A DNA stretch of 64,000 nt, from NCBI GenBank assembly GCA_963727455.1, contig CAVSGG010000005.1, forward strand, positions 512,001-576,000. Direction: 5' to 3'. Shown here piece by piece: positions 26,544-49,866 of the stretch; position 1 is the first letter of the stretch, and the number at the start of each line of letters is the position of its first letter. The position numbers and the translations under genes were made by a program. Origin of the DNA: Candidatus Krumholzibacteriota bacterium. GTDB taxonomy: Bacteria > Krumholzibacteriota > Krumholzibacteriia > JAJRXK01. The notes under the pieces are model-generated. The model was given only the letters and a program-made list of their open reading frames with translations. It searched no databases and had not been told where the DNA came from.

Positions 26544-28061
26544 ATGAAGCGGCTCATCATCATCGGAATCGACGGCATGGACGCGGATTTCGTGGCGGAC
26601 CATCCCAAAGAGATGCCCAATTTCCACCGGCTCGGACAAAAGGGTTATGGGGGAGGCCTGTACACGGTATTTCCTTCGGATTCGATCCCCTCGTGGATCA
26701 CGATCTTTACCGGCATCCCGCCCGTCGATCACGGTATCCTCGATGCCATTGACTACTTCAAGAAGAACCACACCGATTTTTCCGTCGATACTTCCGTATT
26801 CAAGGGCCGCACTTTCTGGGACATCGCGTCCGATGCGGGTAAGAAAGTATGTGTCATCAATCCCTTCATGGCCTATCCGCCCTGGCGAGTGAATGGCTAT
26901 ATGGTCTCCGGGCCGGTCTTCGTGACGGACGGGAAGGAAGCCTCCTGGCCGGAGGAACTCGCGGCGGAGATGCCGATCCCTTCGATGGGAGGAATCGTCG
27001 ACTTCCCGTCCAAGGACACGCTCGGTCAGTTCCGCAAGGAGAGCATCGGATACACCGAAGCTCAACACCGCTTCTCGTTGGATCTGTTGCGGAAGAAGGG
27101 TCCCTTCGATCTCTTCTTCTCCACTTACCTCACGCTGGACCGAGTGCAGCATTTCTACTGGCGATATCACGACCGCCACGATCCCACGTACCCCGGACCC
27201 AGCGAACACGAAGGGGTGGTGTTGGAGTTTTATCAGCTCTTCGATCGTATCGTGGGTGAATACATGGAAGCAGCCGGCGACGACTATGAGATCATGGTGG
27301 TCAGCGACCACGGCCATGGGCGTCGCTGCACCAAGGTCGCGAACGTCAACGAGTACCTGCGGAGAAAGGGATGGCTGCATGCGCGGGGAGGAAACAAGAA
27401 TCTCCTGAACCCGCGGCGAATGGTCCAGAAGCTCAAGACCTCCGCCCTGAATACGCTGGACCGGCTCGACATGGTCGACGTGGCACATCGTATCGTGAAG
27501 ACTGTTCCCAAAGTGCGTGAATTAAAGAAGACCTCATTCCTCGTCGATGAGAAGGACAATCTCGTCTTTACTCCTCGTTTTGCCGGCACCAATCCCTGTG
27601 GGGGGGTATCCATAAACCGCGCCCTGTGTGAGGCGAGGGGTCTGAAGTACGACGAGCTTCGGGCCGAACTCAAGCGAGATCTTCTGGCCATGAAGGATGA
27701 AGCGACGAGCGAGGGACTCTTTCAATGGGTGCTGACACGCGAGGAGTACGTGGGAGACGGGCAGGCGATCGAGAAATTCCCCGATCTCGTGTTTCTCTTG
27801 AAGATGCAATACGGAACAGGTTGGGATCTGTTTGGCGATCTGGTCGATACGAATCCCACCCACCGCAAGATCTCCGGGGGACACAAACTGAGGGGCGTCC
27901 TCTACACGACTCTCAATCCGCATGCGGCGAACGGTGACATCGAGGAAACCCCTGCCGTTCACGACATCGCACCGTTGGTGCTGCGCACTTTCGGACTGCC
28001 GCGCCAACCATGGATGCGGCGAGTAGGGTACGCGAAGCCAGAGGTGGCATGCGAATCCTGA
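26544..28061 (+). CDS. AlkP-superfamily type I phosphodiesterase/nucleotide pyrophosphatase
   Basis: IGIDGMD, PSDSIPSW...TG..P..HG, DRVQH, VSDHGHG, SGGH and DIAP. No signal peptide. Confidence 0.9.
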   Translation: MKRLIIIGIDGMDADFVADHPKEMPNFHRLGQKGYGGGLYTVFPSDSIPSWITIFTGIPPVDHGILDAIDYFKKNHTDFSVDTSVFKGRTFWDIASDAGKKVCVINPFMAYPPWRVNGYMVSGPVFVTDGKEASWPEELAAEMPIPSMGGIVDFPSKDTLGQFRKESIGYTEAQHRFSLDLLRKKGPFDLFFSTYLTLDRVQHFYWRYHDRHDPTYPGPSEHEGVVLEFYQLFDRIVGEYMEAAGDDYEIMVVSDHGHGRRCTKVANVNEYLRRKGWLHARGGNKNLLNPRRMVQKLKTSALNTLDRLDMVDVAHRIVKTVPKVRELKKTSFLVDEKDNLVFTPRFAGTNPCGGVSINRALCEARGLKYDELRAELKRDLLAMKDEATSEGLFQWVLTREEYVGDGQAIEKFPDLVFLLKMQYGTGWDLFGDLVDTNPTHRKISGGHKLRGVLYTTLNPHAANGDIEETPAVHDIAPLVLRTFGLPRQPWMRRVGYAKPEVACES

Positions 28062-29290
28062 TGGCGAACACCTACCACTATCTCCGCGGGGGAGATAGTG
28101 CGTACGCCTTGGGCATCTCCTCCGCCTTGGAGCAAGAGGGGCACCAAGTCATTCCCTTCGCGATGAAGGGTGACGCGAATTTCGCCTCGGACTTCGCGCC
28201 CTACTTCACACCTGAGCTTGATTACCCTGCAATGCAAGCAGAGGGTGGACTGACAAATTCGTGGAGAGTGGTCAGTAATTCCATCTACAATCGACGGGCC
28301 CGGCGCAATCTTAGCCGGCTCTTGGACGAGCACCAGGTCGACCTGGTTCACCTTCACTCCATCATGCATCACCTCACCGCCTCCATCGTTCTGGAGTGTC
28401 GACAACGTGGTATCCCCATCGTGTGGACTCTCCACGACGCCAAGGCGTGCTGTCCAACCACTCGGTTCATGCGCGAGGGAAGAGTGTGTCACGACTGCGC
28501 ACAAGGACGCTTCTACCGTGCGGTGACCACCCGTTGCAAGCGCGGCAGTCTTGCCGCCTCGGCCATCGTGGCCTTCGAACTCTATCTACACCGTTGGTGG
28601 CGAATCTACGAGAGAGCCAACCTACTTTTAGCTCCCAGCCGGTTTCTGAGAGACCTTCTCGTCAACACGGGGCTTCGTCCCCATCGCTTCGAAGTGTTGC
28701 CGAACTACGTGGATGTCGCGGGCTTCGATCCCGCTCAGGGGAGCGGTGAGTATGCACTCTATGTCGGGAGACTCTCCCCCGAGAAGGGTCTCGATGTACT
28801 CTTGAAGGCGGCCGCCCGGGAGCCGAGGATGCCCCTGCGGATCGCCGGTTCGGGTGAAATGGAGGGCCAGTTGCGCCAGGAGTGTCGCGAGCGAGGTCTC
28901 GCCAACGTGCACTTCGAAGGGCATGTCGATCAGAGACGAGTGAAGGAACTGCTGCACGATGCCCGCTGTCTCGTCCTTCCGAGTATCTGGGACGAGAATT
29001 GCCCCATCTCCATCCTGGAAGCGTTTGCCGCCGGAAGAGCGGTCCTGGCCAGTCGGAGTGGTGGGGTGCCCGAATTGGTCAGCCAGGGCGAGACGGGTCG
29101 CCTCGTCGAGCCCGGGAGGGTCGGTCCTCTGGCGGTTGCGCTCAAGGAGCTCGTGGAGGCGCCTGATGAATGGGTGCGTATGGGGCAGAAGGCTCGTGAG
29201 CAGGCCGAGCTTCGCTTCGACGCGAGCACCCACCTGGACTCCTTGCTCGGCTATTACGAAGAGGTATTGGCTGTGCGGAAGAACGACTGA
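28049..29290 (+). CDS. Glycosyltransferase family 4
   Basis: RGGD, WTLHD...CP, GRLSPEKG and ENCPISILEA. Confidence 0.92.
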   Translation: MRILMANTYHYLRGGDSAYALGISSALEQEGHQVIPFAMKGDANFASDFAPYFTPELDYPAMQAEGGLTNSWRVVSNSIYNRRARRNLSRLLDEHQVDLVHLHSIMHHLTASIVLECRQRGIPIVWTLHDAKACCPTTRFMREGRVCHDCAQGRFYRAVTTRCKRGSLAASAIVAFELYLHRWWRIYERANLLLAPSRFLRDLLVNTGLRPHRFEVLPNYVDVAGFDPAQGSGEYALYVGRLSPEKGLDVLLKAAAREPRMPLRIAGSGEMEGQLRQECRERGLANVHFEGHVDQRRVKELLHDARCLVLPSIWDENCPISILEAFAAGRAVLASRSGGVPELVSQGETGRLVEPGRVGPLAVALKELVEAPDEWVRMGQKAREQAELRFDASTHLDSLLGYYEEVLAVRKND

Positions 29291-29299
29291 GGTTCAGCG

Positions 29300-30412
29300 G
29301 TGCGTATTACCTTCGTCTCTCCTCCTCTGTACGCCATGTTCGCGCGCCCCGACCTGCATTTTGCCGGGGGAGCGGAGTTTCAGCAGCTATCCCTGGCCCG
29401 GTGGCTGCGCGACCACGGACACGAGGTCTCGTTCGTGGTGGCCAACTTTGGACAGGGTGAGGTGGAGACGGCCGAAGGATTTCGCTTCTACCGCTCCTTC
29501 GTGCTGGGGGAGGGAAATCGCAAACTGCGCTTTCTTCCTGATATGATCAAGTTGCGCGAGGCCATTCACCGAAGTCGACCCGAAGTCGTCAACCAGCGCT
29601 CGACCTCCTTCTACACCGGCCAGTGCTGCTGGTTCAGCCACCAATGTGGCGCGGCCTTCACCTTTTCCCTGGGAATCGATTACAACTGCTGGCCCGATCT
29701 GCAGGGACGGGCCCCGAGGCCCATCCAGCAGCTCTACCGCTGGGGGGTCGAGCATGCAGAGCTGGTTTTGGCCCAGACCGAGTGGCAAGCTGCTCTGATG
29801 GAGAGAAACTTTCAATGCACTCCGGACGTGCTTCCCAACGTCCTGGAGATTCCCCCCGAGAGAAGCGACGGCGAAGAGGGGGATTACATCCTGTGGGTGG
29901 GCAGCCTCGCCAAGCGGAAGAGGCCCGAACTCTTCGTAGAGCTCGCGCGTGCGCTCCCGCAGCAGAACTTCGTTTTGGTTGGAGGGCCGGGAGAGGACCC
30001 GGGCTATGACGATGAAATGAAAAAGCACGCTTCCGATCTGCAAAATCTCGAGTGGCGTGGCTTCGTGTCTCCGTCGGAAATCGAAGAGGTGTATCGGGGT
30101 GCCCATCTTCTGGTCGGAACCTCGCGCCTGGAGGGTCTTCCCAACACCTATCTGCAAGCCTGGTCGCATGGGGTTCCCGTGATCACGGTGAGTGTCGATC
30201 CTGACGGAGCCATCGCGGAGAAGGGTCTAGGGGAAGTGGTGGGAGAAGAGGGAAACCTGGCTCTGGCAGTGGAGAAATGGATCCGTGACGCTCGGCTCTG
30301 TCGAGAGGCCGGGGCGCGAGGGCGCGAGCACGTGCGCGCGCGACATGACATCGAGAACGTGGCCCCGCGAGCGGTCGAACTCTTCGAGCGAGCACGGAGG
30401 GGCCATGTCTGA
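29300..30412 (+). CDS. Glycosyltransferase family 4
   Basis: GGAEFQ, KRP and EGLPNTYLQAW. Confidence 0.9.
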   Translation: MRITFVSPPLYAMFARPDLHFAGGAEFQQLSLARWLRDHGHEVSFVVANFGQGEVETAEGFRFYRSFVLGEGNRKLRFLPDMIKLREAIHRSRPEVVNQRSTSFYTGQCCWFSHQCGAAFTFSLGIDYNCWPDLQGRAPRPIQQLYRWGVEHAELVLAQTEWQAALMERNFQCTPDVLPNVLEIPPERSDGEEGDYILWVGSLAKRKRPELFVELARALPQQNFVLVGGPGEDPGYDDEMKKHASDLQNLEWRGFVSPSEIEEVYRGAHLLVGTSRLEGLPNTYLQAWSHGVPVITVSVDPDGAIAEKGLGEVVGEEGNLALAVEKWIRDARLCREAGARGREHVRARHDIENVAPRAVELFERARRGHV

Positions 30413-31520
30413 GAAAGTCCTTCGCGTTGCGATTCTCGGGACGCGCGGACTGCCGCCCCGCTACGGGGGACGGGAGACCGCAGCCGATGAGATCGGACGT
30501 CGCCTTGCCGCGCGTGGACACGAGGTAGTGGTGTACTGTCGTAACTACAACGTTTCCACCCCGCGACCGGCCGAGTATCAGGGCATTCGACTGGTTCATC
30601 TGCCGTCCATCCAGGAGAAGAACCTCGACACCCCTTTTCATCTTGTACTTTCTCTCATCCATTTGATTCTACGAGAAAGACCCCAGGTAGTGATTCTCAG
30701 CGGTTCAGGTACCGCCTTTGCCATCCCCATCCTGCATCTTTTCAGGAAGAAAACCGTCATGTGGGTGGACGGGAAAGCGTGGACCCGCGGCAAGTGGGGA
30801 GCATTCGCGCGCTGGTATTTGAAGCGTTCCGCACTGTTCGGTGTCAGGCACAGTGATGCGATCATCACCGACACTCCTCTGGCGCATCGCTTCTATCTGG
30901 AGGAGATGGGCCGTGAGACCGACTACATTCCCTACGGCGCGCAGGTGGAGACGGGTGGAGGGACGGAAACGCTCGATCGCTTGGGACTCGTCCCCGAGCA
31001 ATACCTGCTCTTCGTGGGGCGGTTGGTGCCGGAAAAGGGTGTGCAGTATCTCATCGAGGCCTTCGAGAGGATCGAAACCCCAAGACGCCTGGTGATCGTG
31101 GGGGATGACCCCTACCAGAAGGAGTTCGTCCAGGAGCTGAAGAGCACTCCGGACCCGCGGATACTCTTTACTGGCTATATCTTCGGGAAAGGCTTCCACG
31201 AGCTGATGCGCAACTGCCGCATCTATGTCCAGCCCAGTGACGTGGAGGGAACGAGTCCTGTACTCTTGAGTGCGATGGCCTACGGCCGGGCTGTCGTGGT
31301 CAACGGGATTCCGGAGAACTTGAATACCATGGGAGATGCCGGTCTTTCGTTTGCGCCAGGCGATGTTTCCCAACTGCAGGACAGACTCGAGGAACTGATG
31401 GAGGACGAAGAGAAGATTCGAGAACTCGGACGCCGTGCATCAGATCGAGTGCGTGCCCTGTACGATTGGGACAAGATTACTGACACCTTTGCTGCTCTAC
31501 TCACAAGTTTGACAGATTGA
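30405..31520 (+). CDS. Glycosyltransferase family 4 (DUF1972-type N-terminus)
   Basis: ILGTRGLPPRYGG, IPYGA, GRLVPEKG and EGTSPVLL.AM. Confidence 0.9.
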   Translation: MSEKVLRVAILGTRGLPPRYGGRETAADEIGRRLAARGHEVVVYCRNYNVSTPRPAEYQGIRLVHLPSIQEKNLDTPFHLVLSLIHLILRERPQVVILSGSGTAFAIPILHLFRKKTVMWVDGKAWTRGKWGAFARWYLKRSALFGVRHSDAIITDTPLAHRFYLEEMGRETDYIPYGAQVETGGGTETLDRLGLVPEQYLLFVGRLVPEKGVQYLIEAFERIETPRRLVIVGDDPYQKEFVQELKSTPDPRILFTGYIFGKGFHELMRNCRIYVQPSDVEGTSPVLLSAMAYGRAVVVNGIPENLNTMGDAGLSFAPGDVSQLQDRLEELMEDEEKIRELGRRASDRVRALYDWDKITDTFAALLTSLTD

Positions 31521-31561
31521 CCGCGCACAACTGACGGGAGGATGAACGGTCTGCCACTCGA

Positions 31562-33109
31562 CTACTTATCCTCTCTCGATTTTGGAGCCCAGTAGATCGC
31601 TTTGCCCATACCACTTGTGTCGTGGCGCAGCTCGTATTCCTCCTGCCATCTTCGACGTTGCGCCTTGGTGCGAAAAAGCGCGTAATGAATGAAATCCTCT
31701 TTGATAACGCTCTCACCCTTTAAGCTTCTATCCAGAATGAAAACCCGCGGATGGTAAGTATCCATGAGGTCACCGATGAAAACCGAATCACTTCTGGAAT
31801 GCTCGAGCGCGAGATCGCGTGAGACCAGAGCACCCAAATCCAAGATTTTGCGCTTGGAGGCCCAGCCAATCAGACCAATGTCACCGGTCGCCACCAGATC
31901 GTCGCGATTCGTGTTGGATTGAAGCCAATCCGCAACTTTCTGATAACGGCCACCTACGGATTCTCGAATCCTCGCGCTTCGATAGCTCTGAAGGGTCATG
32001 GAAATCAGGATGAGTCCAATAGCGAAGGTGGTTGCTACGGATGGCTTCCGCAGTATGCGCAAGATTCCTGTGGGAAGAGTGATGCTGAGCAGAAGAACGA
32101 AACAGAGACAGCTGGGGACGCCGTACCAGGAGAAGAGCCGACCCGGATGTCCGAGCAAGTAGAAGGAAATGTAGGCGAGTAGCGAAAGCGTCAGCAAAAA
32201 TCCCATGCTCGAAATGGCTCTTAGGTGACGCTTCAAAAACCAAGCGAGAAGGATGAGGCAGAGTAGGCCCAAAACAGAGGTTGCAAGAACCCCCATCCGG
32301 AGAAATACAGTATCGGGTAAACCAAAGAGCAAAGAGCTAATGTAGAGTGACAGATCAGCAAAGCTGTGAACGGCATTCAGCGAAGTACTGGCCTTCGCAA
32401 GAGCCGAATTGGGAAGAATGGAGCCATACTGAGTGATCGCAAGTATGAACCAACCCAAGCCCATGACTGCGGCAATTACCGCACTGATCAAGGCCGATGT
32501 GAATCTCCGGAATGCCGCGACAGCCAATAAGACTCCAAAGAGGATGACGCCCTCCGGGCGTGTCAATCCGGTGACTCCACCCCAAACTCCTCGCACTACG
32601 CTTCGGCCCTTCAAATGTGCTTCCCACATCCCGAGGATACCCAAGAGGAATAGCGGCGTTTCCATGCCCTCGATCGAACTGTCCACGAAAGCAAACCATA
32701 CGGTAAAGATCATTGCTCCGAAGAGCGCACTCTCCTGTGAGAAAGAAGTCAAGAGTCTCCAGATGAACCACAGTCCCACGAGGTAGCAAAGAATCCCTAA
32801 CCAGGGAAGAAAGGCAATGAGTGTTGCATCGGGAAGCATTTTCGCCAAGGCGGCGAGGAGGTACATGTATAGGGGCGAGGTGAACCCCATTACAATTTCG
32901 CCCTGATTGTATACTAGGCCCAGGCCAGCCCGAAAATTCTCTGCATATCGCAGGTAGATGTAGGTATCATCGATGAAGAGGCCGCCGCTCAGTCGGTGGG
33001 CAAGAAGCCTCAGGACGATTCCTATCCCTGCCAACAGCAGGAGATACCCAGGAATAGTCTCTTGAAGCTCGGCCTTCCTCGGAGAACCTTTAGCTGCAGA
33101 GTTCCACAT
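31562..33109 (-). CDS. GT-C-fold membrane glycosyltransferase (DD-motif family)
   Basis: 'IDDTYIYLRYAEN...GLVYN.GE...GFTSPLY', GMETPL, TRPEG, PNSALAK and 'DIGLIG...ILDLGALV'. ATG at 33109 preferred over the track start. Confidence 0.8.
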   Translation of the reverse strand: MWNSAAKGSPRKAELQETIPGYLLLLAGIGIVLRLLAHRLSGGLFIDDTYIYLRYAENFRAGLGLVYNQGEIVMGFTSPLYMYLLAALAKMLPDATLIAFLPWLGILCYLVGLWFIWRLLTSFSQESALFGAMIFTVWFAFVDSSIEGMETPLFLLGILGMWEAHLKGRSVVRGVWGGVTGLTRPEGVILFGVLLAVAAFRRFTSALISAVIAAVMGLGWFILAITQYGSILPNSALAKASTSLNAVHSFADLSLYISSLLFGLPDTVFLRMGVLATSVLGLLCLILLAWFLKRHLRAISSMGFLLTLSLLAYISFYLLGHPGRLFSWYGVPSCLCFVLLLSITLPTGILRILRKPSVATTFAIGLILISMTLQSYRSARIRESVGGRYQKVADWLQSNTNRDDLVATGDIGLIGWASKRKILDLGALVSRDLALEHSRSDSVFIGDLMDTYHPRVFILDRSLKGESVIKEDFIHYALFRTKAQRRRWQEEYELRHDTSGMGKAIYWAPKSREDK

Positions 33110-33119
33110 ATTGCAGCCC

Positions 33120-34394
33120 TTATTCGACAGTGTTGACGTAATTGCGCCCGGACTTGATCTGAATGGCGCGTGCAACGAAGACCGGAAGAAAGGCGCCCAG
33201 TCGGTAGACGTTTTCGGGATAGCGGAGATAGCGGGCGATCCCGAAGTACAGGGGGTGCATCACGGGCACGAAGACTCCACCAACGGCTCGAGCCGCCCGA
33301 AAATGGGTCAGGAAGTTGTCCCGAAGGTTCACGGGGAAACTCCTGTCTCCCGCTGCGGAAATGTCCGCGAAGTGCTGCCCGATGCTCAGTGTCCTTCGAA
33401 CACCTTTCGTCGTCGGGAGGTGCAGGGGCAAATAGTAGCCATTGCGATACATGGTTTCATAACGATAGCCGGCCGCTTCCACCGCATCCCGCGTGCGTGG
33501 AGTGGTGTTGGTGCGGAGCTCACCTCCATGCATACAGACACCCTCGACCTCTGCCCCAACTAGCTCCGCCAGAGTTCTCTTCTCTTCGATCGCAGCGGCT
33601 TCTTCGGTCCCAAAACGGCTCTGGGCCGTGGTCACGAACTCACCATGAAGCGCAACCTCGTGCCCACGCATCTTCGCGACGCAATTGCGAATTTCCCGGT
33701 TGCCGTAGAACAGCCCCATGGGTCGCAAGTAAACGGTGCTTCTCAGTCCGAAGGTTTCTTCGAGCGCATGGATGGCGGGGAGGTTCACGATGGCCTTGTC
33801 GACGTCGTAGCGTGTCGATACTGCCGCACGATAGGGGCGACCATCACGGTGCGGCAGGGTCCAGATCCGAAGCTCCGGAAGGCCCTTTGCCCGGTGGGCT
33901 TCTCTCAGGAGATTACGCAGTCTATCTAGAGCCTTCTCGTCGAAACGTTGGTGCTTTTCAGCAGAGCGGCGGAGTTCTTCGAGCTGGATTCGTGCCGCCC
34001 TGGATTCGAGGCTCGGGTCGTTTTCCGGCGACCCGAGCATATGCCCGTAACCAAGGTGAGAAATCACTTCCCGCGCGAAGGGATCCGAGAACTCTGTTCC
34101 GAGAGTCGGCAGTCCCTGATCAGGTGAAGTGGAATCGAGAGGAAAGGGAGGGATGCGGAGTTCGGTTCTGTCCACCTCGACGACCGCATTCTCCAGATGG
34201 GTGTCCAGGCGGCCCTCGGCGTCCAGTGTCAGACTAGCCTCTTGGCGTTGCTCCCACCAGCTTGCGATCTCCCTTTGGGGGACACACCACACGTCTCCAT
34301 CGGCGCGTACTTCTTCCAGGAATTCGCGGTAGGCGGGGGCATCCTTCATGAAGCGATGACGCGCGATCGCACGCTTGATCATCGCCAGATTCAT
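33120..34394 (-). CDS. Polysaccharide deacetylase-like (NodB/CE4 fold) protein
   Basis: TRYDVD, ST.YL, EVALHG, MHGG, Y.YET and GGVFVPVMHP. Confidence 0.7.
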   Translation of the reverse strand: MNLAMIKRAIARHRFMKDAPAYREFLEEVRADGDVWCVPQREIASWWEQRQEASLTLDAEGRLDTHLENAVVEVDRTELRIPPFPLDSTSPDQGLPTLGTEFSDPFAREVISHLGYGHMLGSPENDPSLESRAARIQLEELRRSAEKHQRFDEKALDRLRNLLREAHRAKGLPELRIWTLPHRDGRPYRAAVSTRYDVDKAIVNLPAIHALEETFGLRSTVYLRPMGLFYGNREIRNCVAKMRGHEVALHGEFVTTAQSRFGTEEAAAIEEKRTLAELVGAEVEGVCMHGGELRTNTTPRTRDAVEAAGYRYETMYRNGYYLPLHLPTTKGVRRTLSIGQHFADISAAGDRSFPVNLRDNFLTHFRAARAVGGVFVPVMHPLYFGIARYLRYPENVYRLGAFLPVFVARAIQIKSGRNYVNTVE

Positions 34395-34657
34395 TCCGAA
34401 GAATCCTCGAGAGAGCTCTCCACGAAGCTGATCATTTGATCCAAACTGTCGAAGATCTGGAAGTTATCGTCGTCGATATAGATGCCAAATCGCTCTTCGA
34501 TCGCGGTCAGGAGTTCGATGCCGCTCATGGAGTCCATACCCAAGCCTCCTGAAAAGACGGGCACATCAGTGGGCAAGTCCTCCGGTGCGATGGCACCGTC
34601 CAGCGCTCGGGAAACGATGGCTCGAATGTCCGTTTCGATCGCCTCGCGCGAACTCAT
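34391..34657 (-). CDS. Acyl carrier protein
   Basis: Acidic 88-aa protein with GMDSM (phosphopantetheine Ser) and IEERFGI. Overlaps both neighbours by ATGA. Confidence 0.9.
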   Translation of the reverse strand: MSSREAIETDIRAIVSRALDGAIAPEDLPTDVPVFSGGLGMDSMSGIELLTAIEERFGIYIDDDNFQIFDSLDQMISFVESSLEDSSE

Positions 34658-35718
34658 GAGGGTTCCCCAATCGATCGCGGTGTCAAGGTCACCCAACTCG
34701 GACATTCGATGCTACCCTTGGAAAGGTCGAAGACGAACACGCTCGACTCTTCGTTGCTCAAGTTCTGGTCTTTTTCGAAGCCCATAATCTTGTAGAGAAG
34801 TCCGATCTGACGATTTCGCTCGGTTCGGATGTATTTAGCTCTAAGCCAACGGCAGCCGCTTTCTTGGGCGAGTCGACCCAGGTGAGAGAGAAAGGCTGTC
34901 CCGAGTCCTCTTCCTGCAACTCGGCAGGAGAGGAGTAGAATCTCGATATTCCATGCATCGGGTTCGTGGCGGATGAGCGACACGCCACAGCGTCCATAAT
35001 CTCCGTGTTTGTCCTCGAGAGAGCACACGTGAAACGACATTTCCTTCGCACGGAAGAACTCCAAGATCTCCTCGTCGCTGTAGCGGATTCCAGTGGAATT
35101 GAACTGGTTGGTTCTCGTCACCAGTTCACTGATTCTGGGGAGATCATCTTCGTCTGCGAGCCACGGAGTTGCGACCATATCGAGAGACGTGAGGAAAGCT
35201 TCACGGCGGCCCTCGTGCTCTTCTTCCAGTCGCTTGCGCTCCGCCTCTTCGACGTACATGCGTCCTCTGGCACGCGCCTCGGGGGTATCGTAGTTGAGCT
35301 GGAATTCGGGAAGCTCGATCAACTTTCGATAATCCAGAGCGTCATAAGTGCGCACTTCCGGCAGCATGGCTTGCACGGACTCTCGCTCGAAGGGATTGTC
35401 ATCGACGAAAGCCACTGCATCGAGTCCGATGTTGAGGGTCTCCACGATCCTCTTGATGTTGTCTTCCTTCGGATCCCAATTCACTTGCGGATGGACGAAG
35501 TACTGCATGAGGCCGAAGTTCTCCACAAATTCGAGGGCCTTTTCCTCGTTCTTGGAGGCGATCGACTGCACGAGTCCTCGTTCTTTCAATTCCGCGAGCA
35601 CGTCGGTGATGCCCGGACGGAGTTGAACCTCCGGATCCTCCAGACAAATCCCGTCCCACAGCGTATTATCGAGGTCCCAGATCACACATTTGATGCCGGC
35701 CATGTGGGAATCTCCCAT
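34654..35718 (-). CDS. fkbH: FkbH-family glyceryl-ACP synthase (HAD-IIIC phosphatase + acyltransferase domain)
   Basis: KCVIWDLDNTLWDG, SIASKN, WDPK, FVDDNPFER, RTNQFN, DKHGDYG and LLSCRV (Cys). Confidence 0.93.
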   Translation of the reverse strand: MGDSHMAGIKCVIWDLDNTLWDGICLEDPEVQLRPGITDVLAELKERGLVQSIASKNEEKALEFVENFGLMQYFVHPQVNWDPKEDNIKRIVETLNIGLDAVAFVDDNPFERESVQAMLPEVRTYDALDYRKLIELPEFQLNYDTPEARARGRMYVEEAERKRLEEEHEGRREAFLTSLDMVATPWLADEDDLPRISELVTRTNQFNSTGIRYSDEEILEFFRAKEMSFHVCSLEDKHGDYGRCGVSLIRHEPDAWNIEILLLSCRVAGRGLGTAFLSHLGRLAQESGCRWLRAKYIRTERNRQIGLLYKIMGFEKDQNLSNEESSVFVFDLSKGSIECPSWVTLTPRSIGEPS

Positions 35719-35720
35719 AC

Positions 35721-36251
35721 TCAGGGGAGCTTTCGCTCCATTCGCTGTGCTGAGGGCTTGCGCAAAGGGCGCAGGCCCTTCTTGAATTCTTCCATGCTCT
35801 TGCGATAGCCGAGTGTCTTGGTGACACGGGCCATGGGCTTGGCCTCCGGCGATCCACCGACCAGAGTATAGTCGGGGACACTCTTGGTAACCACGGATCC
35901 CGCGGCTACCACCGCGCCCTCGCCAATGCGAACGTTGGGCATGATGACGGAGTTGGGACCGATAAAGGCGTCTGGACCAATTTCGACCGACCCTACCCCT
36001 CTCATGTGCGAGATGATGATCACCGAAATTCCGATCACGGAGCGGTCGTGGATGGTCACTTTCTCCGGATACTCGTCATCGATGTAGACGTTCGCTCCCA
36101 GGAAGATCTTACCATCGATCTTGACGCCCCGGGCGCGGTGAAGCCACACACGTAGGCTCTCCGAGCCTGGGCAGAGTCTCGCCCATACGTGCAAGACTCT
36201 CTGAAAAACTCGTTGAGGAAGTCGGAGGAATCGCGATAATTCGCTATTCAT
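35721..36251 (-). CDS. Left-handed beta-helix (hexapeptide) acyltransferase
   Basis: IGPDAFIGPNSVIMPNVRIGEGAVVAAGSVVTKSVP hexapeptide repeats. Confidence 0.9.
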   Translation of the reverse strand: MNSELSRFLRLPQRVFQRVLHVWARLCPGSESLRVWLHRARGVKIDGKIFLGANVYIDDEYPEKVTIHDRSVIGISVIIISHMRGVGSVEIGPDAFIGPNSVIMPNVRIGEGAVVAAGSVVTKSVPDYTLVGGSPEAKPMARVTKTLGYRKSMEEFKKGLRPLRKPSAQRMERKLP

Positions 36252-36312
36252 GGTAAGCTCGATTTTATCGCAGGATCCTGAAGTTCTGCAAGAGTTTAGG
36301 GAGATCAAGCGG

Positions 36313-38181
36313 ATGTGTGGGATCGCCGGCGCTGCGTTCGGTCGCGAGGAATTCCTCGAGGACGGTGAGCTGCGCGAGCGCCTTCAGCGGATGAGTCGGG
36401 CCATCCGTCACCGTGGACCGGACGATGCCGGGATCGAGACCTTTGGCCGCTGCGGACTGGCGTTCGTTCGTCTCTCGATCATCGACCTCGAGGGCGGTCA
36501 CCAGCCCATGGCCAGCCCATCCGGGCGCTACACCGTCGTCTTCAATGGCGAAATTTACAACTTCCGCGAACTTCGCCGAGACCTCGAGTCCCGGGGCTGG
36601 CAATTCCGGACCAAGAGCGATACCGAAGTCCTGTTGGCGATGTACGAGGTCCATGGCGAAGACATGCTGGCACGGCTTAACGGCATGTTCGCCTTCATGA
36701 TCTATGATCGGGAACGAAATGTACTTTTCGGTGCCCGGGACCGCCTCGGAATCAAACCGCTCTTCTATGCACCGACGGAGGGGGGCATGGTCTTCGCCAG
36801 CGAACTTCCCTCCATTCGGGCGTGGGGCCTGCCGGCCGCAGAGATCGATCCGCAGGCTTTCTCGGACTATTTGAGCTATGGCTTCGTATGCTCACCCCGG
36901 ACCATCTATCGAAATGTGTATTCTCTGCCGCCTGGACACTCGATACGCCTCGAGGATGGCAAGATCGAGACTCAGCGCTACTGGCAAGTAATGCGCGACG
37001 ACAGCGTTCCGAGGAACATGGATGAAGCCGTCGATGCCCTCGAAGCACTCCTGGAATCCGCAGTCAGCCTGCGCACCGTCGCCGATGTTCCTCTCGGCGC
37101 TCTCTTGAGCGGGGGGATCGATTCCGGCCTCGTGACCGTCATGCTGGCCCGGTCCTCGTCGAGTGCAGTTCGCACCTTTTCCGTAGGTTTCGAGGAGGAA
37201 GGATTCGACGAGCTTCCCTGGGCGCGGCGGGTCGCGGAGATGTACGGAACGGAGCATACCGAAATCATGTGCCGTCCCTCGATTCGCGATCTGGTCGCCA
37301 AGCTCGCTGTCGGCTACGGACAGCCCTTCGGCGATTCGAGTGCAATTCCCTCGTTTCTGGTTTGTCAGGAGGCTCGTCGCCACGTGACGGTCGCCCTCAG
37401 TGGCGATGGTGGAGATGAAGTTTTCGCCGGATATCAGAGACACACAGAGATGGCTCGTTGGAGGCCCTCACCCTTGCGCCCAGGAGCTGCGCTGCTTTAT
37501 CAGCTTCTGCACCGGCTCTTGCCACCCATGACCAAGGGGATGAGTCGCATGCGACGGGCGGGCTTGTCAGAGCGGGAGCGACAGATAGATACGCTCGTCG
37601 TTCTAAGCGAAGGCTATAAAGAGTGGCTGGCGGGCCCACGACTTTTCCCGGCCTTAAGTCGAGAGACAAGTCTCGAACTGGCTCGTCGTGCGGGTGGACC
37701 CTTCGAAAGGGAAGGGGGGGTCCGACGATTTCAGCACCAGGATCTCGTCATGTACTTGCCGAACGATGTTCTTCAGAAAGTGGATCGCGCCAGCATGCTC
37801 AATTCCCTGGAGGTGCGCGTTCCACTCCTGGATCACCGTATCGTGGAATTCGGTCTCAATTTGGCAACGTCCCTTAAGAACGACGGAGCAAACGGCAAGC
37901 TGGTCCTCAGAGAACTCGGGAGAAAGGTTTTGCCAGAGGGACACCTCAAGAAGCCCAAGACCGGTTTCTCGGTTCCCATCGATCGTTGGCTTCGCGAGGA
38001 GCTGGATGATCTGGTCCAGGACTCCCTGGAACATTCCCATCTGGCAGAAGAGGGGTGGTTGAAGCAGACTTCACTACACCAGATCATGGATTCGCACCGG
38101 CAAGGGCGTTCAATGGCCAGCGCGTTGTGGTTCTTGATGATGGCGGAGCTCTGGTACCGGGATGCTCGCACATATCGGTAG
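36313..38181 (+). CDS. asnB: Asparagine synthase-like glutamine amidotransferase 2
   Basis: MCGIAG at 36313, HRGPDD, RLSIIDL, LSGGIDS, LSGDGGDE and KVDRASM..SLEVRVP. Confidence 0.95.
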   Translation: MCGIAGAAFGREEFLEDGELRERLQRMSRAIRHRGPDDAGIETFGRCGLAFVRLSIIDLEGGHQPMASPSGRYTVVFNGEIYNFRELRRDLESRGWQFRTKSDTEVLLAMYEVHGEDMLARLNGMFAFMIYDRERNVLFGARDRLGIKPLFYAPTEGGMVFASELPSIRAWGLPAAEIDPQAFSDYLSYGFVCSPRTIYRNVYSLPPGHSIRLEDGKIETQRYWQVMRDDSVPRNMDEAVDALEALLESAVSLRTVADVPLGALLSGGIDSGLVTVMLARSSSSAVRTFSVGFEEEGFDELPWARRVAEMYGTEHTEIMCRPSIRDLVAKLAVGYGQPFGDSSAIPSFLVCQEARRHVTVALSGDGGDEVFAGYQRHTEMARWRPSPLRPGAALLYQLLHRLLPPMTKGMSRMRRAGLSERERQIDTLVVLSEGYKEWLAGPRLFPALSRETSLELARRAGGPFEREGGVRRFQHQDLVMYLPNDVLQKVDRASMLNSLEVRVPLLDHRIVEFGLNLATSLKNDGANGKLVLRELGRKVLPEGHLKKPKTGFSVPIDRWLREELDDLVQDSLEHSHLAEEGWLKQTSLHQIMDSHRQGRSMASALWFLMMAELWYRDARTYR

Positions 38182-38193
38182 AGGAGTAGGTGA

Positions 38194-39033
38194 ATGGACG
38201 ACAGGCGGGTTTGTCCTTGCTGTGAAGGATCGATGGAGGCCTGGAAGAGCTGGCTTTGGGGATGTCCGAACTGCAGGTTTCTGAGTTCGACCCTAAGTCC
38301 TGGTGCGGGGGCTCCGATCGAAGGGGTTGAGGAACTTCGAAGGAGAAACTTTGCGAGTCTCCTCGATTGGGTGCAGAGACATAGAGAGCTCAAAGGAGCG
38401 CGGCTACTGGAGGTAGGATGTTCCACCGGGACTTTCTTACTTGAAGCTCGCTCCCGTGGATCCGAGGTGCGCGCGATCGAACCCGAGCTGAAGGCGGTTC
38501 TGAGAGCCCGTGAGTTGGGATTCGAAGTGGATCATGGGTTTTTCCCGACTGACCTCAGCTGTGAGGGGCCATTCGACATTGTCGTCTTCAACGATGTCTT
38601 CGAGCATCTGCCCAATCCACGAGAATCCCTGGCTGCAGCGCGTGACCTCATCACAAAGAGCGGCCTTTTCGTGTTGAATCTGCCGAGTTCCAATGGCGTG
38701 CTGTACCGCACGGCCGAAGTGCTCGATCGATTGGGAATATCAGGGGCACTTGAGCGGCTTTGGCAGCGTGGTCTGAGTTCTCCACATCTCAGCTACTTCA
38801 ATGGAGGGAATCTGCACGAGTTCCTGACGCGGAATTCCGATCTCGAGATCTTGGAGCACGGAAGCCTATTGACGATGAGTCGTAGCGGGCTGCTAGCGCG
38901 CATACAAAGTACTGTCAGTGGCCCGGCAAGTTGGTTCGTTTACGGGTGTTTGTATCTGTTGGTAGGATTGCTCGAGAAGATGCCTTCAGACATCCAGTTC
39001 GTTATCGCAAGACCTGCTGGAGATGGCCCCTGA
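38194..39033 (+). CDS. Class I SAM-dependent methyltransferase with N-terminal Zn-finger
   Basis: CPCC...CPNC, LLEVGCSTG, DVFEHLPNP and HLSYF. Confidence 0.88.
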   Translation: MDDRRVCPCCEGSMEAWKSWLWGCPNCRFLSSTLSPGAGAPIEGVEELRRRNFASLLDWVQRHRELKGARLLEVGCSTGTFLLEARSRGSEVRAIEPELKAVLRARELGFEVDHGFFPTDLSCEGPFDIVVFNDVFEHLPNPRESLAAARDLITKSGLFVLNLPSSNGVLYRTAEVLDRLGISGALERLWQRGLSSPHLSYFNGGNLHEFLTRNSDLEILEHGSLLTMSRSGLLARIQSTVSGPASWFVYGCLYLLVGLLEKMPSDIQFVIARPAGDGP

Positions 39034-39041
39034 CATTAGTT

Positions 39042-40043
39042 CTACTCCGTGGAGGCCGATGCTTGAGGTTGAGTTTCTTGGCCGAGCCAGGGCATGGCGA
39101 GATAGTGCAGCCTACGCGCCTCCAGCCTGCCGTGAGTGACCGTGTCGAGGATAAGTCCACAGGTAATACTGAGGGATGCGATCAATGCGATTCCGGTTGC
39201 TAGGATAGCAGTGGGGAAACGCGGGACGAGACCGGTTCTCAGAAATTCTGTGACGATCGGCCAACCCAGTCCTATCGAGACGAGGAAGAGGAGTATCCCC
39301 AGGCTGCCGAAGAATGCAAGGGGCCGTTCCTCCTTCACGAGAAAGAGAATGGTCCGGAGAATGACGAAGCCGTCACGGATGGTGTTTAGTTTACTGGCTG
39401 AGCCTTCCGGTCTCTCTTTATAGGGGGCGATCTGCTCGCGAGTTGGCATGTTCAACTCGAGTGCGTGCACGGTCAGTTCGGTCTCAATTTCAAAACCATG
39501 AGAAAGCGCCGGGAATGACTTCACGAACCGCCGGGAAAAAATCCTGTAACCGGAAAGCATGTCTCGAAGGCGATCTCCAAAGATAGCTCGCACGAGATTG
39601 GTCAAGACCACATTCCCGATCCTGTGACCAGTTCGGAAGGCCGCGGTGACGTTCTTTTCCCGGGCAACGTTCACCATGTCGAGCCGCTCATCGAGCAACA
39701 TTTCTATGAGACGAGGGGCCACGCCGGCATCGTAGGTATCATCTCCGTCCACGAGCACATAGATATCGGCTTCGACATCCGCAAACATGCGCCTGACAAC
39801 GTGACCCTTCCCTTGGAGAGTCTCATGACGCACGACTGCGGAGGCCTGCCTCGCGAACTCTACAGTATTATCACTCGAGTTGTTGTCGTAGACGTAGATC
39901 GTAGCGTAAGGCAGGACGGCACGGAAGTCGTAGACTACTTTCTGAATCGCAGCTTCCTCGTTATAGCACGGAATCAGCACAGCGATTCTGGGGGTACGTT
40001 CCACTATAGAGGCCTCTGACTGTCTAATAATGTGAACACCCAA
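39042..40043 (-). CDS. GT2 undecaprenyl-phosphate glycosyltransferase (GtrB/ArnC-like, two C-terminal TM helices)
   Basis: IPCYNEE, YDNNSSD, GKG, DGDDTY, DMLSGYR, FEIETE and SKLNT.RDG. Confidence 0.92.
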   Translation of the reverse strand: MGVHIIRQSEASIVERTPRIAVLIPCYNEEAAIQKVVYDFRAVLPYATIYVYDNNSSDNTVEFARQASAVVRHETLQGKGHVVRRMFADVEADIYVLVDGDDTYDAGVAPRLIEMLLDERLDMVNVAREKNVTAAFRTGHRIGNVVLTNLVRAIFGDRLRDMLSGYRIFSRRFVKSFPALSHGFEIETELTVHALELNMPTREQIAPYKERPEGSASKLNTIRDGFVILRTILFLVKEERPLAFFGSLGILLFLVSIGLGWPIVTEFLRTGLVPRFPTAILATGIALIASLSITCGLILDTVTHGRLEARRLHYLAMPWLGQETQPQASASTE

Positions 40044-41634: not shown

Positions 41635-41636
41635 TA

Positions 41637-44045: not shown

Positions 44046-44123
44046 GCCAGAGGGCCCATCCGCCGCCGCCGTGCGGCTTCGCCCTCAAAGCCGCCCCTCG
44101 CGAGATTTCTCGGGGCCGCTAGA

Positions 44124-44153
44124 TTGCTTGCGATGGGGCAAGAGTGCTATACT
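44124..44153 (+). promoter_or_regulatory. Putative sigma70 promoter (TTGCTT-N18-TATACT, extended -10)
   Basis: TTGCTT at 44124-44129 and TG-c-TATACT at 44145-44153. Confidence 0.55.
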
Positions 44154-44306
44154 GATTCTCCTGGCGGGGATCCCAGTAGAAAAAGGCTTTAGAGCCACAC
44201 CATGCGACGTTTGCGGCAGCATCTCCGTCTCTTCCGAACATGCGGAAAGGGCTCCCATCCTCTCCGAGAGTTGCGCGTCGTTCCTTTCGAATCTTCGAGG
44301 TGATCC

Positions 44307-48738: not shown

Positions 48739-49617
48739 CTAGCGGAAGGTGGTCTGTACGTACTCGCTCAGGGCGATGCGCCAGTGTCGCATCGGCGCAA
48801 GTCCGATCAGCTTGGCGCGGAGTCCCTCGATTGCCTCGGAAGCGGGACGGAACGCGGCCAGGGGAAACTGGGCCGAGGAGCAGGGTTGTACCTCACAAGT
48901 TTCGATCCCAGCGGCTTTCAGAATTTCCTGCGCCATCTCGAAGCGCGTACACGATCCCTCGTTCGCGGCGTGGTAAGTGCCGAACCTCTCCGTCGGCAAT
49001 AGCTCGAGGCAGCGGTGCGCGATGTCCACGGTGTAAGTGGGGGAACCTGACTTGTCGTCCACCGCCAAGAGGAGCTCGCTGGTGCGCGCGCGTTCGATCA
49101 TCTTGGCCACGAACTTCTTGTCCTCGGGCCCTCCTCCGAACATCCAACCCGCGCGAACGAGGTAGTGTTTGGGAACCAGGCGGCGCACCGCTTCCTCACC
49201 GAAGTACTTGCTGCGCGCATAGACGCTCACCGGTCCGGGAGAATCGAACTCGTGATAGGGGAGGTTCTTGTCACCGGGGAATACGCTTCCGGTCGAAACG
49301 TAGAGGAGTCCGCAGTCGCGCTCGTGGCAGAGAATGGCCAGACTCTCGGTGCCCATGGCGTTCACGCGCCAGGCATCCTCCGGCTCACGCTCGCAGTAGT
49401 CCACGTCGGTGAGGGCGGCCAGATGGAGCACCCAGTCGGGCTGGAAGCGATCCAGGGCCCTGGCCAGCTCCTCATGGGAGGTGATATCCAGGCGGTCCTT
49501 GGGGTCCTTTTCCAGCTTGGCGATGTCGGTCCCCCAGGCCTCGTGCCCCGCCGCCTCCGCCGCAGCGCGAAGGTCTCTTCCCATCATACCCCGCGCGCCG
49601 GTGATGAGCAGCCTCAT
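48739..49617 (-). CDS. rfbD: dTDP-4-dehydrorhamnose reductase
   Basis: LITGARGMMG, AALTDVD.CE, YARSK and GSPTY. Confidence 0.9.
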   Translation of the reverse strand: MRLLITGARGMMGRDLRAAAEAAGHEAWGTDIAKLEKDPKDRLDITSHEELARALDRFQPDWVLHLAALTDVDYCEREPEDAWRVNAMGTESLAILCHERDCGLLYVSTGSVFPGDKNLPYHEFDSPGPVSVYARSKYFGEEAVRRLVPKHYLVRAGWMFGGGPEDKKFVAKMIERARTSELLLAVDDKSGSPTYTVDIAHRCLELLPTERFGTYHAANEGSCTRFEMAQEILKAAGIETCEVQPCSSAQFPLAAFRPASEAIEGLRAKLIGLAPMRHWRIALSEYVQTTFR

Positions 49618-49857: not shown

Positions 49858-49866
49858 GCGGAGGTC

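Follow-up and report, generated by a model that had tools for sequence, protein, structure and literature searches.

A predicted carrier-protein-dependent sugar acylation cassette built around an FkbH protein in a Krumholzibacteriota exopolysaccharide locus

An FkbH-ACP operon in an uncultured wetland bacterium

This report concerns a cluster of five genes from an uncultured wetland bacterium, a metagenome-assembled genome (MAG) of Krumholzibacteriota type. The genome (G000) consists of 18 contigs that sum to 3.46 Mb, with a completeness of 88.85% and a contamination of 6.68%. We analysed one stretch of 64,000 nucleotides, G000:C5:512001-576000, referred to below as the window. Five co-directional open reading frames (ORFs) on the minus strand fill positions 31562-36251 and encode, in order, an LbH acyltransferase, an FkbH-family protein, an acyl carrier protein (ACP), a protein termed X424 and a GT-C membrane glycosyltransferase. 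We propose that the first four of these form a cytoplasmic, carrier-protein-dependent sugar acylation cassette within an exopolysaccharide locus. The five genes are as follows.

35721-36251, minus strand: LbH (hexapeptide) acyltransferase, 176 aa (PF00132); the ORF extends to a TTG at 36308
34654-35718, minus strand: FkbH-family protein, 354 aa, with a HAD-IIIC phosphatase domain and a GNAT-like C-terminal domain (TIGR01686)
34391-34657, minus strand: dedicated ACP, 88 aa (PF00550), starting at the second ATG of ORF 34391-34705
33120-34394, minus strand: X424, 424 aa, fold of carbohydrate esterase family 4 (CE4; NodB homology) with an extra N-terminal part of ~170 aa (AlphaFold2, AF2, and Foldseek)
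31562-33109, minus strand: membrane glycosyltransferase of GT-C fold, 515 aa, last gene of the operon (AF2 and Foldseek); the ORF extends to a TTG at 33175

Direct reading of the junctions reveals that the FkbH stop and the ACP start have an ATGA in common at 34657-34654, and that a second ATGA at 34394-34391 is common to the ACP stop and the X424 start. The gap between the LbH stop and the FkbH ATG is 2 nt, and that between the X424 stop and the GT-C ATG is 10 nt. Upstream, a divergent AsnB gene starts (MCGIAG, 36313) only 61 bp from the LbH start. Segments that resemble transmembrane helices are absent from LbH, FkbH, ACP and X424, and eight are present in the GT-C protein. An initial annotation, made from the letters of the window, had described five tightly packed minus-strand genes with ATGA overlaps around the ACP, and both the ORFs and the junctions bear this out. 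Its gene calls were also right, although those of a CE4-like protein and a GT-C enzyme needed structure prediction with AF2 and Foldseek.

Contigs from the Logan collection for two wetland metagenome runs tile positions 29000-39500 in pieces at identities of at least 99%, a coverage that is not independent evidence because these runs may be the source samples. The base composition of the cassette gives no sign of foreign origin, and among the RNA datasets listed none holds the cassette.

FkbH and its dedicated carrier protein

The FkbH protein scores 253.7 bits against TIGR01686 (cut-off 146.65), with residues 9-317 covering positions 3-322 of the 323 in the profile. Its N-terminal half is of HAD-IIIC type and its C-terminal half gives weak GNAT-like matches. 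No full-length FkbH structure was found in the PDB, where the sole match, 3slr, is to the HAD half. The gene is single-copy in the genome. We aligned 24 FkbH sequences (alignment A2), eight of cassette type and 16 from a distant tier at 42-45% identity, the named members of which are cyanobacterial and Streptomyces HAD-IIIC phosphatases (S. olivaceus among them). The window protein has all 57 invariant columns of this alignment, as it must by construction, being one of the aligned sequences; D10, D12, T14, S47, K79, D101, D102, C6 and C260 are among them. It retains the DxDxT motif and the other HAD motifs, together with both invariant cysteines (KCVxWDLDNT; LLSCRV). Identities are 59-87% inside the cassette clade and at most 48% to other FkbH proteins. 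From its sequence, we propose that the protein is a glyceryl-S-ACP synthase.

The carrier protein scores 35.2 bits against PF00550 (cut-off 20.8). Its serine lies in the motif GLGMDSMSG, and GLGxDSxSG is invariant among seven orthologues. There are just two PP-binding genes in the genome, of which the other is AcpP. A single phosphopantetheinyl transferase was found genome-wide; it is of AcpS type (G000:C5:508614-508898; PF01648, 64.8 bits) and lies 3 kb upstream of the window, just beyond the exopolysaccharide locus. Both AcpP and the cassette ACP would depend on this enzyme.

The conserved unit comprises four genes

To place the cassette among its relatives, we examined related genomes and further loci. 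All related loci derive from MAGs, some of which may be mis-binned (one carries a Patescibacteria label), and their ORFs were called heuristically with a GC3-weighted caller, which missed the carrier in locus L021 and the ACP in L106. Pfam was applied to selected neighbours.

The conserved unit is four genes, LbH-FkbH-ACP-CE4-like, and not five. It occurs at seven further loci, of which three are truncated by contig ends; most come from Krumholzibacteriota MAGs and one from a MAG labelled Eisenbacteria. The order is beyond chance because it is repeated in other MAGs at amino-acid identities of 44-76%. FkbH is found in only one of 40 related genomes (G037, 66% identity), and the X424 profile gives five strong and two weak matches in the same 40; both are patchy accessory genes. 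G037 (locus L010) has LbH-FkbH-ACP-X424 in the same order, with no match to the GT-C or AsnB proteins of the window.

The GT-C gene, by contrast, does not travel with the other four. Among the six other loci of this type on genome contigs, none has an adjacent orthologue; a match at 25% identity lies 4 kb away in L017, and L010 has a different, PMT_2-type GT-C on the other side. The synteny of five genes that the initial annotation had expected therefore holds for LbH-FkbH-ACP-CE4-like and fails for the GT-C, which loses its assigned place as a cassette member.

An LbH/X424 core with exchangeable loaders

A scan with the X424 profile, with one genome taken per species, yielded 20 loci, or 22 with the window and G037 included (the window, L010 and L011-L030). 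Seven of these have the arrangement LbH-FkbH-ACP-X424, here called type A (the window, L010, L011, L017, L020, L024 and L016, the last cut). In six loci of type B, an AMP-binding enzyme accompanies LbH and X424 in one of two gene orders (L013, L014, L019, L021, L022 and L029), and a small carrier of ~93 aa was called in five of the six, L021 being the exception. Type C consists of LbH-X424 alone (2 of 22: L012 and L018), and type D of X424 with no LbH within the fetched flank (4 of 22: L023, L025, L027 and L028). The other three loci are cut on the critical side (L015, L026 and L030). An eighth locus with FkbH-ACP-X424, L032, comes from metagenomes.

The loader of type B is an amino-acid adenylation domain, which scores 331 bits in L019 and 308 in L022 against TIGR01733 (cut-off 317), with DltA as the next-best model. 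Its carrier has a DS motif and, at 20.2 bits, falls just short of the PF00550 cut-off (20.8). In all, a loader gene stands between or beside LbH and X424 in 13 of the 22 loci (and in L032), and a carrier was called in 12 of these 13. The LbH and CE4-like pair is thus a constant core, and loader and carrier are exchangeable.

A maximum-likelihood tree of 15 LbH proteins sorts by cassette type: type B is supported at 100/99 and type C at 100/100, and type A lies on one side of a 55/95 branch. The tree requires two changes of label, which is the minimum, and none of 200 shuffles equalled it, although this test overstates the signal and its independence because the sequences come from related genomes. 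The swap of loaders around a constant LbH/CE4-like pair and the sorting of the LbH tree by loader therefore fit what is expected of a module that deacetylates a sugar and then re-acylates it from a carrier protein. This idea of the initial annotation, framed there for an ACP, is strengthened in this respect and is still a hypothesis. Most simply, the LbH/X424 pair would process one sugar nitrogen, and the acyl group would be what varies. We also considered a protect/deprotect role of the pair on a carrier-bound acyl group, and rejected it on the grounds that two loci have the pair without a carrier.

Several features of individual loci were noted in passing. In L029 (type B, L029:7476-9212), X424 is spread over four frames and the extracted LbH frame passes an in-frame stop into the X424 region; the broken X424 is either a decaying copy or an assembly error. 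In two MAGs (L012:9560-16047 and L026), LbH-X424 without a carrier gene is followed by genes for an acylphosphatase, a class-I glutamine amidotransferase, an HtrA protease, a myo-inositol-1-phosphate synthase and an inositol monophosphatase. Acyl phosphates, 1,3-bisphosphoglycerate among them, are substrates of acylphosphatases, and we draw no conclusion from this. Downstream of X424, many Krumholzibacteriia loci (L013, L015, L018, L019, L023, L025, L027, L029 and L030) have a gene for a secreted M1 peptidase that carries a FlgD-Ig domain, and G037 has one for an oligopeptide transporter of the OPT family (L010:12933-14912). These downstream genes probably reflect a conserved chromosomal neighbourhood and not a common function.

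The LbH acyltransferase

The LbH protein scores 47.1 bits against PF00132 (Hexapep; cut-off 27). Its best NCBIfam and PDB relatives are CoA-dependent O- and N-acetyltransferases (YvoF-like, VatA, DapH and MAT/GAT), all far under the family cut-offs, and the nearest include maltose, galactoside and streptogramin O-acetyltransferases as well as DapH. It matches the acyl-ACP-dependent enzymes LpxD (NF002060, 42.1 bits, cut-off 207) and LpxA (NF003657, 33.1 bits, cut-off 226) in part and is a member of neither family. His82 is invariant across 13 cassette LbH proteins. None of the five operon proteins matches the NodA family in Pfam.

We propose that LbH is an acyl-carrier-protein-dependent sugar acyltransferase, for which the use of acyl-ACP is suggested by synteny: in 14 related loci, LbH adjoins X424 or loader genes. 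The protein is basic (net charge +12) and the ACP acidic (-16). A predicted complex of the LbH trimer with the ACP scores 0.53, compared with 0.00 for the best of three controls, and was graded as weak support. Of 80 solved complexes, 58 reach the pass mark used, as do two of 110 mismatched pairs; at or below a score of 0.60, the passes comprise only seven of the 80 solved complexes plus both passing mismatches. The three runs share at least 76% of contacts, with a predicted local distance difference test (pLDDT) value of at least 78 for the partner, and the pass may reflect memory of solved complexes of LpxA and LpxD with ACP.

A rival explanation is O-glyceroylation or a conventional acetyltransferase: LbH would be an ordinary acetyl-CoA-dependent O- or N-acetyltransferase of the exopolysaccharide and X424 an unrelated deacetylase. 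Glyceryl-S-ACP would then be used by another enzyme, freed as glycerate or spent on an ester, as in glycerate-substituted polysaccharides. The O-acetyltransferases and DapH at the head of the LbH matches speak for this explanation, as do the modest result of the complex prediction and the two loci (L012 and L018) in which LbH-X424 occurs without a carrier gene. Against it stand the loader genes at LbH/X424 in 13 of 22 loci and in L032, the carrier in 12 of those 13, the ATGA coupling in the window, and an LbH sequence that follows the type of loader. Moreover, the conserved cassette holds no other acyltransferase candidate. We regard this explanation as quite unlikely.

X424 and the GT-C protein

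X424 has no match in Pfam (E<=0.01), NCBIfam or the PDB sequences, which covers PF01522 and the related DUF2334 and WbmS-like models, and a profile of 33 homologues searched against PDB sequences has its best hit at E=0.23, to the C-terminal helix of a deacetylase. Its homologues form 66 clusters, none annotated and none carrying a Pfam domain. The AF2 model built with the 33 homologues has a pLDDT of 90.7, and all 16 Foldseek matches at E<=1e-3 are of CE4 fold, with target-normalised template-modelling (TM) scores of 0.38-0.54. HP0310 (1.4e-7) leads these matches and is followed by PuuE allantoinase; deacetylases of M. smegmatis and P. aeruginosa, ArnD and WbmS are also present. In the Atlas, clusters that look like X424 by their features have PF01522 in 58-85% of members. 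Across 33 sequences, five positions are invariant (D197, D199, E252, H289 and E292) and two more are almost so (H250 and H380). We propose from this fold that X424 is a sugar de-N-acetylase. The label "CE4-like" is valid at the level of fold only, because comparison of fold and features placed the protein there, with no sequence match.

The GT-C protein has no Pfam match either. Its AF2 model has a pLDDT of 84.7, and all 31 Foldseek matches at E<=1e-3 are GT-C enzymes: AftB ranks first (3.2e-7), then AftA, PglB, STT3 and ArnT, with ALG9/12 and DPY19 among the remainder. Comparison with ArnT gives TM scores of 0.55-0.57, and the look-alikes in the Atlas are named as ArnT family or have PMT_2 in 38% of members. 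At E<=1e-10 there are just nine homologues. A motif, FIDDTYIY, follows the first transmembrane helix and is in the consensus of these nine, where it is not invariant since some rows are without the N-terminus.

The surrounding exopolysaccharide locus

The window from ~690 to 60151 is one Wzx/Wzy-type exopolysaccharide locus of ~60 kb, which contains a Wzz-like protein, an AAA ATPase, Wzy_C, Wzx and about ten GT4 and GT2 genes, as well as PpgS-like and AglJ-like polyprenyl-phosphate sugar synthases and a polyprenyl synthase. The genes around the cassette include the following.

28010-31520: three GT4 genes, on the flank of the cassette
36313-38181, plus strand: AsnB-type glutamine amidotransferase, divergent from the cassette (PF00733, 316 bits; TIGR01536, 464 vs 267; TIGR03108, PEP-CTERM exopolysaccharide amidotransferase, 558, under the 817 cut-off)
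38194-39033, plus strand: class I S-adenosylmethionine (SAM) methyltransferase (PF13489, 63.9 bits)
39042-40043, minus strand: GT2 resembling polyprenyl-phosphate-sugar synthases (TIGR04182, AglJ type, 198.8 bits, under the 325 cut-off)
40111-41634, plus strand: second GT-C protein, PMT_2 type (PF13231, 30.2 bits)
48739-51839: RmlD-type reductase (minus strand; PF04321, 266 bits), DegT-type sugar aminotransferase (plus strand; PF01041, 381 bits) and initiating phosphoglycosyl transferase Bac_transf (plus strand; PF02397, 223 bits)

Glycosyltransferases and AsnB on the flanks had been noted in the initial annotation, and the glycan-locus setting that it assumed holds. Its pairing of DegT with a Gfo enzyme is half right: DegT is present in the window, and no Gfo/Idh/MocA gene was found among the scanned window ORFs, one being present in the related locus L022.

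Four further observations concern this locus. A protein of the penicillin-amidase family (Ntn hydrolase), 833 aa (41544-44045, plus strand; PF01804, 461 bits), adjoins the PMT_2 GT-C gene; it is unusual among glycan genes and may be an N-acyl amidase. Directly upstream of Wzx, a MurB gene (PF02873/PF01565) and a MurA-like gene of the EPSP-synthase family (16527-18745, plus strand) suggest that the polysaccharide contains a sugar with an enolpyruvyl or lactyl ether, and that these genes do not serve peptidoglycan. A minus-strand ORF of 412 aa with no Pfam match (44085-45440 region) overlaps a plus-strand radical SAM/SPASM ORF (44307-45440), which is kept in L022 and is probably the real gene of the pair. 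Lastly, the locus has two AsnB-type amidotransferases (12849-14702 and 36313-38181) and begins with Wzz-like, AAA_22 and BcsQ-like genes. The PEP-CTERM/XrtA-type resemblance of the second AsnB, together with these genes at the locus start, suggests an exopolysaccharide system of exosortase type; no search was made for an exosortase gene.

Related loci also have glycan-type settings. At least 12 of the 22 X424 loci have glycosyltransferase, flippase, Wzy or nucleoside diphosphate (NDP)-sugar genes in the fetched flank, and Wzx-like flippases flank X424 in further loci. L022 and the window both have AsnB, GT4, radical SAM, RmlD, DegT and Bac_transf genes, and in L022 the RmlD/DegT/Bac_transf trio stands directly beside the type B cassette. 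Because of these common genes, L022 looks like an equivalent exopolysaccharide locus in which type B replaces type A. Genes for a short-chain dehydrogenase/reductase (SDR), a DegT aminotransferase and an ArnC/PgfS-like GT2 lie beside the cassettes of L010 and L024.

The flanks of other loci raise the question of whether the cassette acts on glycans at all. It might instead acylate a small metabolite or build a natural product that contains glyceroyl or aminoacyl groups, with its exopolysaccharide location being incidental. Genes that are not obviously connected with glycans flank L011 (GNAT, thioredoxin-like, MaoC/SDR), L017 (sigma factor, DUF3307, AAA) and L020 (M20 peptidase), and likewise L010 (OPT transporter downstream) and L012 (amino-acid permease, acylphosphatase and inositol genes). 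Yet X424 has the fold of a carbohydrate esterase family, glycan-type genes accompany at least 12 of 22 loci, the window cassette lies in the middle of its locus and is co-transcribed with a GT-C gene, and the sister cassette of L022 sits at an equivalent exopolysaccharide locus. We consider this non-glycan explanation very doubtful.

Another explanation has a different order of reactions, modelled on the Arn pathway. DegT would make an NDP-amino sugar, LbH would N-acylate it with glyceroyl from the ACP, an ArnC-like GT2 would place it on polyprenyl phosphate, X424 would deacylate it on the lipid carrier in the manner of ArnD, and a GT-C enzyme would transfer it outside the cytoplasm. This order is a serious rival because the genes of an Arn-like pathway are all present in L010, side by side: SDR, an ArnC/PgfS-like GT2 (174 and 196 bits, full length), DegT, a PMT_2 GT-C, LbH, FkbH, ACP and X424. 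In L024, NTP-transferase, SDR, DegT and GT2 genes stand beside the cassette. Within the window, the GT-C protein that matches ArnT is encoded directly downstream of X424, both PpgS-like and AglJ-like polyprenyl-phosphate sugar synthases are present, and ArnD (8t0j, E 1.3e-5) is among the Foldseek matches of X424. ArnD is, however, just 11th among those matches, and the flanks of L011, L017 (apart from its distant GT-C match) and L020 are without GT2, DegT and GT-C genes. The co-diversification of LbH with the loader also suggests that the system exists to install the acyl group. Above all, a loader and carrier would be a costly supply for a transient protecting group, for which acetyl-CoA or formyl-tetrahydrofolate would suffice. 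We rank the Arn-like order below N-acylation as the final step because an expensive carrier-borne acyl group is odd as transient protection, and judge it unlikely on balance.

Polyketide partners not found, and contrast with other FkbH loci

Most characterised FkbH proteins serve polyketide synthases (PKSs) or nonribosomal peptide synthetases (NRPSs). The window ORFs that were scanned yielded no domain of the ketosynthase (KS), Condensation or MBOAT families and none of either dehydrogenase, acyl-CoA or 3-hydroxyacyl-CoA; the scan excluded the short ORFs 30-659, 3325-3681, 8443-8814, 16076-16348, 51764-52093 and 63445-63786. This agrees with the statement of the initial annotation that no KS, NRPS or MBOAT gene is present. 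Among the ORFs scanned at 17450-50979, which include ~10 kb around the cassette, there are no partners of the hydroxymalonyl or methoxymalonyl (FkbG-K type) pathways. The genome as a whole has one strong KS match (FabF, beside AcpP) and three weak ones, no Condensation domain in 3.46 Mb, and one MBOAT, on a contig other than that of the window. No PKS or NRPS was found in this 89%-complete genome.

For comparison, we scanned metagenomes with the FkbH alignment and kept 80 of 586 confirmed loci, which have 40-47% identity with the exception of L032 (69%). Their neighbours were clustered by BLAST and one representative of each cluster was tested with Pfam. Acyl-CoA dehydrogenases occur in 52 of the 80 loci, 3-hydroxyacyl-CoA dehydrogenases in 38, megasynthase-type ORFs (representative with Condensation and AMP-binding domains) in 38 and KS-like ORFs in 22. 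At least one of acyl-CoA dehydrogenase, 3-hydroxyacyl-CoA dehydrogenase and megasynthase is a neighbour in 63 loci; the remaining 17 are mostly short contigs. The LbH profile matches none of the 80, and X424 is found in one of them, L032.

Three of these 17 loci show that FkbH is also paired, independently, with a CE4 protein that differs from X424. In L034 (1-1662), L106 (37-1971) and L107 (5648-7693), a membrane-anchored protein of 553-681 aa is encoded directly upstream of FkbH or ACP-FkbH, with no PKS genes nearby. It combines an unassigned domain of ~360 aa with a C-terminal, canonical CE4 domain of PF01522/PgaB-like type (Pfam on L106; BpsB at 2.1e-11 in the PDB on L107). Two further ideas about these loci were abandoned. 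The genes of 463-469 aa in L107, considered as MBOATs that would link FkbH-ACP to an extracytoplasmic CE4 enzyme, are V-type ATPase subunits, and a DltD-like N-terminal domain in the CE4 fusions of the three loci was dropped, there being no PDB sequence match.

The ~11% of the genome that was not assembled could encode a PKS, an NRPS or a pathway for hydroxymalonyl or methoxymalonyl extender units that the ACP of the window serves, a possibility that the initial annotation had itself raised for a PKS encoded elsewhere. The incomplete assembly leaves room for it, and what most characterised FkbH proteins do speaks in its favour, as do the neighbours of 63 of the 80 metagenomic loci. It is opposed by the search of the 3.46 Mb, in which no modular KS or Condensation domain was found, by the lack of both kinds of dehydrogenase gene among scanned neighbours, and by the seven related type A loci, none of which has a KS-bearing neighbour by similarity clustering (with Pfam on selected neighbours). 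The gap in FkbH identity, 59-87% in the clade and at most 48% outside it, weighs in the same direction. We hold this possibility to be extremely improbable.

Proposed mechanism

We put at about an even chance a mechanism in which FkbH forms glyceryl-S-ACP and LbH glyceroylates a sugar amine that the CE4-like enzyme has freed. By homology to OzmB and FkbH, the FkbH protein would take 1,3-bisphosphoglycerate to give a glyceryl-S-enzyme, which would be dephosphorylated and its glyceryl group loaded onto holo-ACP. X424, as its fold would have it, would act on an amino sugar linked to a nucleotide or to polyprenyl and strip it of its N-acetyl group, which leaves a free amine. LbH would then move the glyceroyl group from glyceryl-S-ACP to the amine to form an N-glyceroyl sugar, a step suggested by synteny and by the precedent of LpxD. 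Finally, the modified sugar would enter the exopolysaccharide, and in the window the GT-C enzyme might conceivably act here via a polyprenyl-phosphate-linked donor. In the sister loci, an adenylation enzyme and its carrier replace FkbH-ACP, and the same LbH/X424 core would add an aminoacyl group.

A broader form of this proposal is a modular "N-acyl exchange", in which X424 removes an N-acetyl group and LbH adds a glyceroyl group, an aminoacyl group or, where there is no carrier, an acyl group borne by CoA, according to the loader. We offer this generalisation tentatively, as possible but somewhat less than probable.

Several observations weigh against glyceroylation by the cassette as set out here. 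The nearest characterised relatives of LbH depend on acetyl-CoA, its scores are far under the LpxA and LpxD models, and the LbH-ACP prediction was a weak pass. X424 is without a detectable PF01522 sequence match and may not be a deacetylase. The LbH/X424 pair does not need a carrier, because L012 and L018 are without a carrier gene. Three type A loci (L011, L017 and L020) are without obvious glycan genes in the fetched flanks, and in L010, L024 and L022 the DegT enzyme beside the cassette could supply an amine without any deacetylase, which would favour another role for X424. A PKS could also sit in the missing part of the genome, given its completeness of 88.85% and contamination of 6.68%.

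The biosynthetic origin of the N-glyceroyl, O-glyceroyl and N-aminoacyl groups on bacterial surface sugars is mostly unexplained. If true, N-acyl exchange would explain, in terms of genes and enzymes, how the N-glyceroyl and N-aminoacyl amino sugars known chemically from many bacterial glycans arise, and the polyketide extender enzyme FkbH would have a second, glycan-directed role outside PKS and NRPS pathways. FkbH has hitherto been treated as a marker of the latter, so this role would be relevant to genome-mining tools that count it as evidence of secondary metabolism. The direct biological impact is modest because the organism is an uncultured wetland MAG. The cassette is compact and soluble, with four genes, and its prediction is clear enough for a direct test; an architecture with swappable loaders would be useful in glycoengineering.

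Comparison with known systems

FkbH and OzmB, acting with FkbJ and OzmE, provide glyceryl-S-ACP for methoxymalonyl-ACP and for tetronates, and vioprolide and cystomanamide are NRPS cases. OzmB (366 aa) is described as proceeding from a phosphoglyceryl-S-enzyme through a glyceryl-S-enzyme to glyceryl-ACP (PMC9057759), and FkbH domains of NRPS lines as loading glyceryl onto T domains (PMC8949500). The window protein belongs to the same family, is of similar length (354 vs 366 aa), keeps the HAD motifs and the cysteines, and has a small adjoining ACP. It differs in its partners, LbH and a CE4-fold protein, with no dehydrogenases, KS or C domain found nearby and no modular KS or C domain found in the genome. 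To the distant tier, the type whose metagenomic relatives adjoin PKS and NRPS genes, it has only 42-45% identity.

Glyceroyl groups on sugars are known from other systems. PglB2 has an ATP-grasp domain. In Neisseria, PglB2, a different enzyme from those proposed here, installs a glyceroyl sugar modification (GATDH) (PMC10425976). The genetic basis of the N-glyceroyl group of T. forsythia has been termed "a major challenge" (PMC5378307). In C. jejuni, cj1302, a gene with an fkbH domain, lies in the flagellin glycosylation locus (PMC7099621), and glyceroyl-modified CMP-sugars have been described (bioRxiv 10.64898/2026.04.20.719630). GATDH, Pse5Am7Gra of T. forsythia and the 2,3-di-O-methylglyceroyl nonulosonic acids of C. 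jejuni belong to the product class proposed here, that of N-glyceroyl amino sugars; unlike the cassette, PglB2 is another kind of enzyme and has no ACP. In the literature covered (subscription journals and supplements lay outside the search), the matches listed hold no biochemical link between FkbH-ACP and a glycan, and cj1302 is the only FkbH in a glycan locus among them, the other matches being on PKS or NRPS topics or unrelated subjects.

The Arn pathway (ArnA/B/C/D/T) places L-Ara4N on lipid A. The cassette and its neighbours resemble it in having a CE4-fold deacylase, a DegT-type aminotransferase, an ArnC-like GT2 (in L010) and an ArnT-like GT-C. They differ in that an ACP-linked acyl supply takes the place of the formyltransferase, and in that GT2, DegT and GT-C genes are not consistently linked to the cassette.

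In the N-acylation of Nod factors, NodB is the founding CE4 deacetylase, NodF a dedicated ACP and NodA the N-acyltransferase. The likeness to the cassette is one of logic only: release of an amine by a CE4-fold protein, a dedicated ACP with an unusual acyl group, and an acyltransferase. LbH is not NodA, the sequence of X424 does not identify it as a NodB, and the proposed glyceryl group would come from glycolysis and not from a fatty acid. In the LpxC/LpxD pair, a UDP-sugar is deacetylated and then N-acylated from acyl-ACP by an LbH enzyme, and LpxC is not a CE4 protein. The cassette resembles this pair in logic and in the weak, partial LpxD and LpxA matches of its LbH protein, which fall under the cut-offs of both families; it differs in that its ACP is dedicated and is not AcpP, and in that a C3 hydroxy acid is the proposed acyl group. 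The initial annotation implied a more novel idea than this is, because Nod-factor N-acylation and LpxC/LpxD work alike and cj1302 is also known (PMC7099621). Each component comes from a known family or, for X424, has a known fold, and the logic has precedents, among which NodB/NodF/NodA and LpxC/LpxD are the closest analogues.

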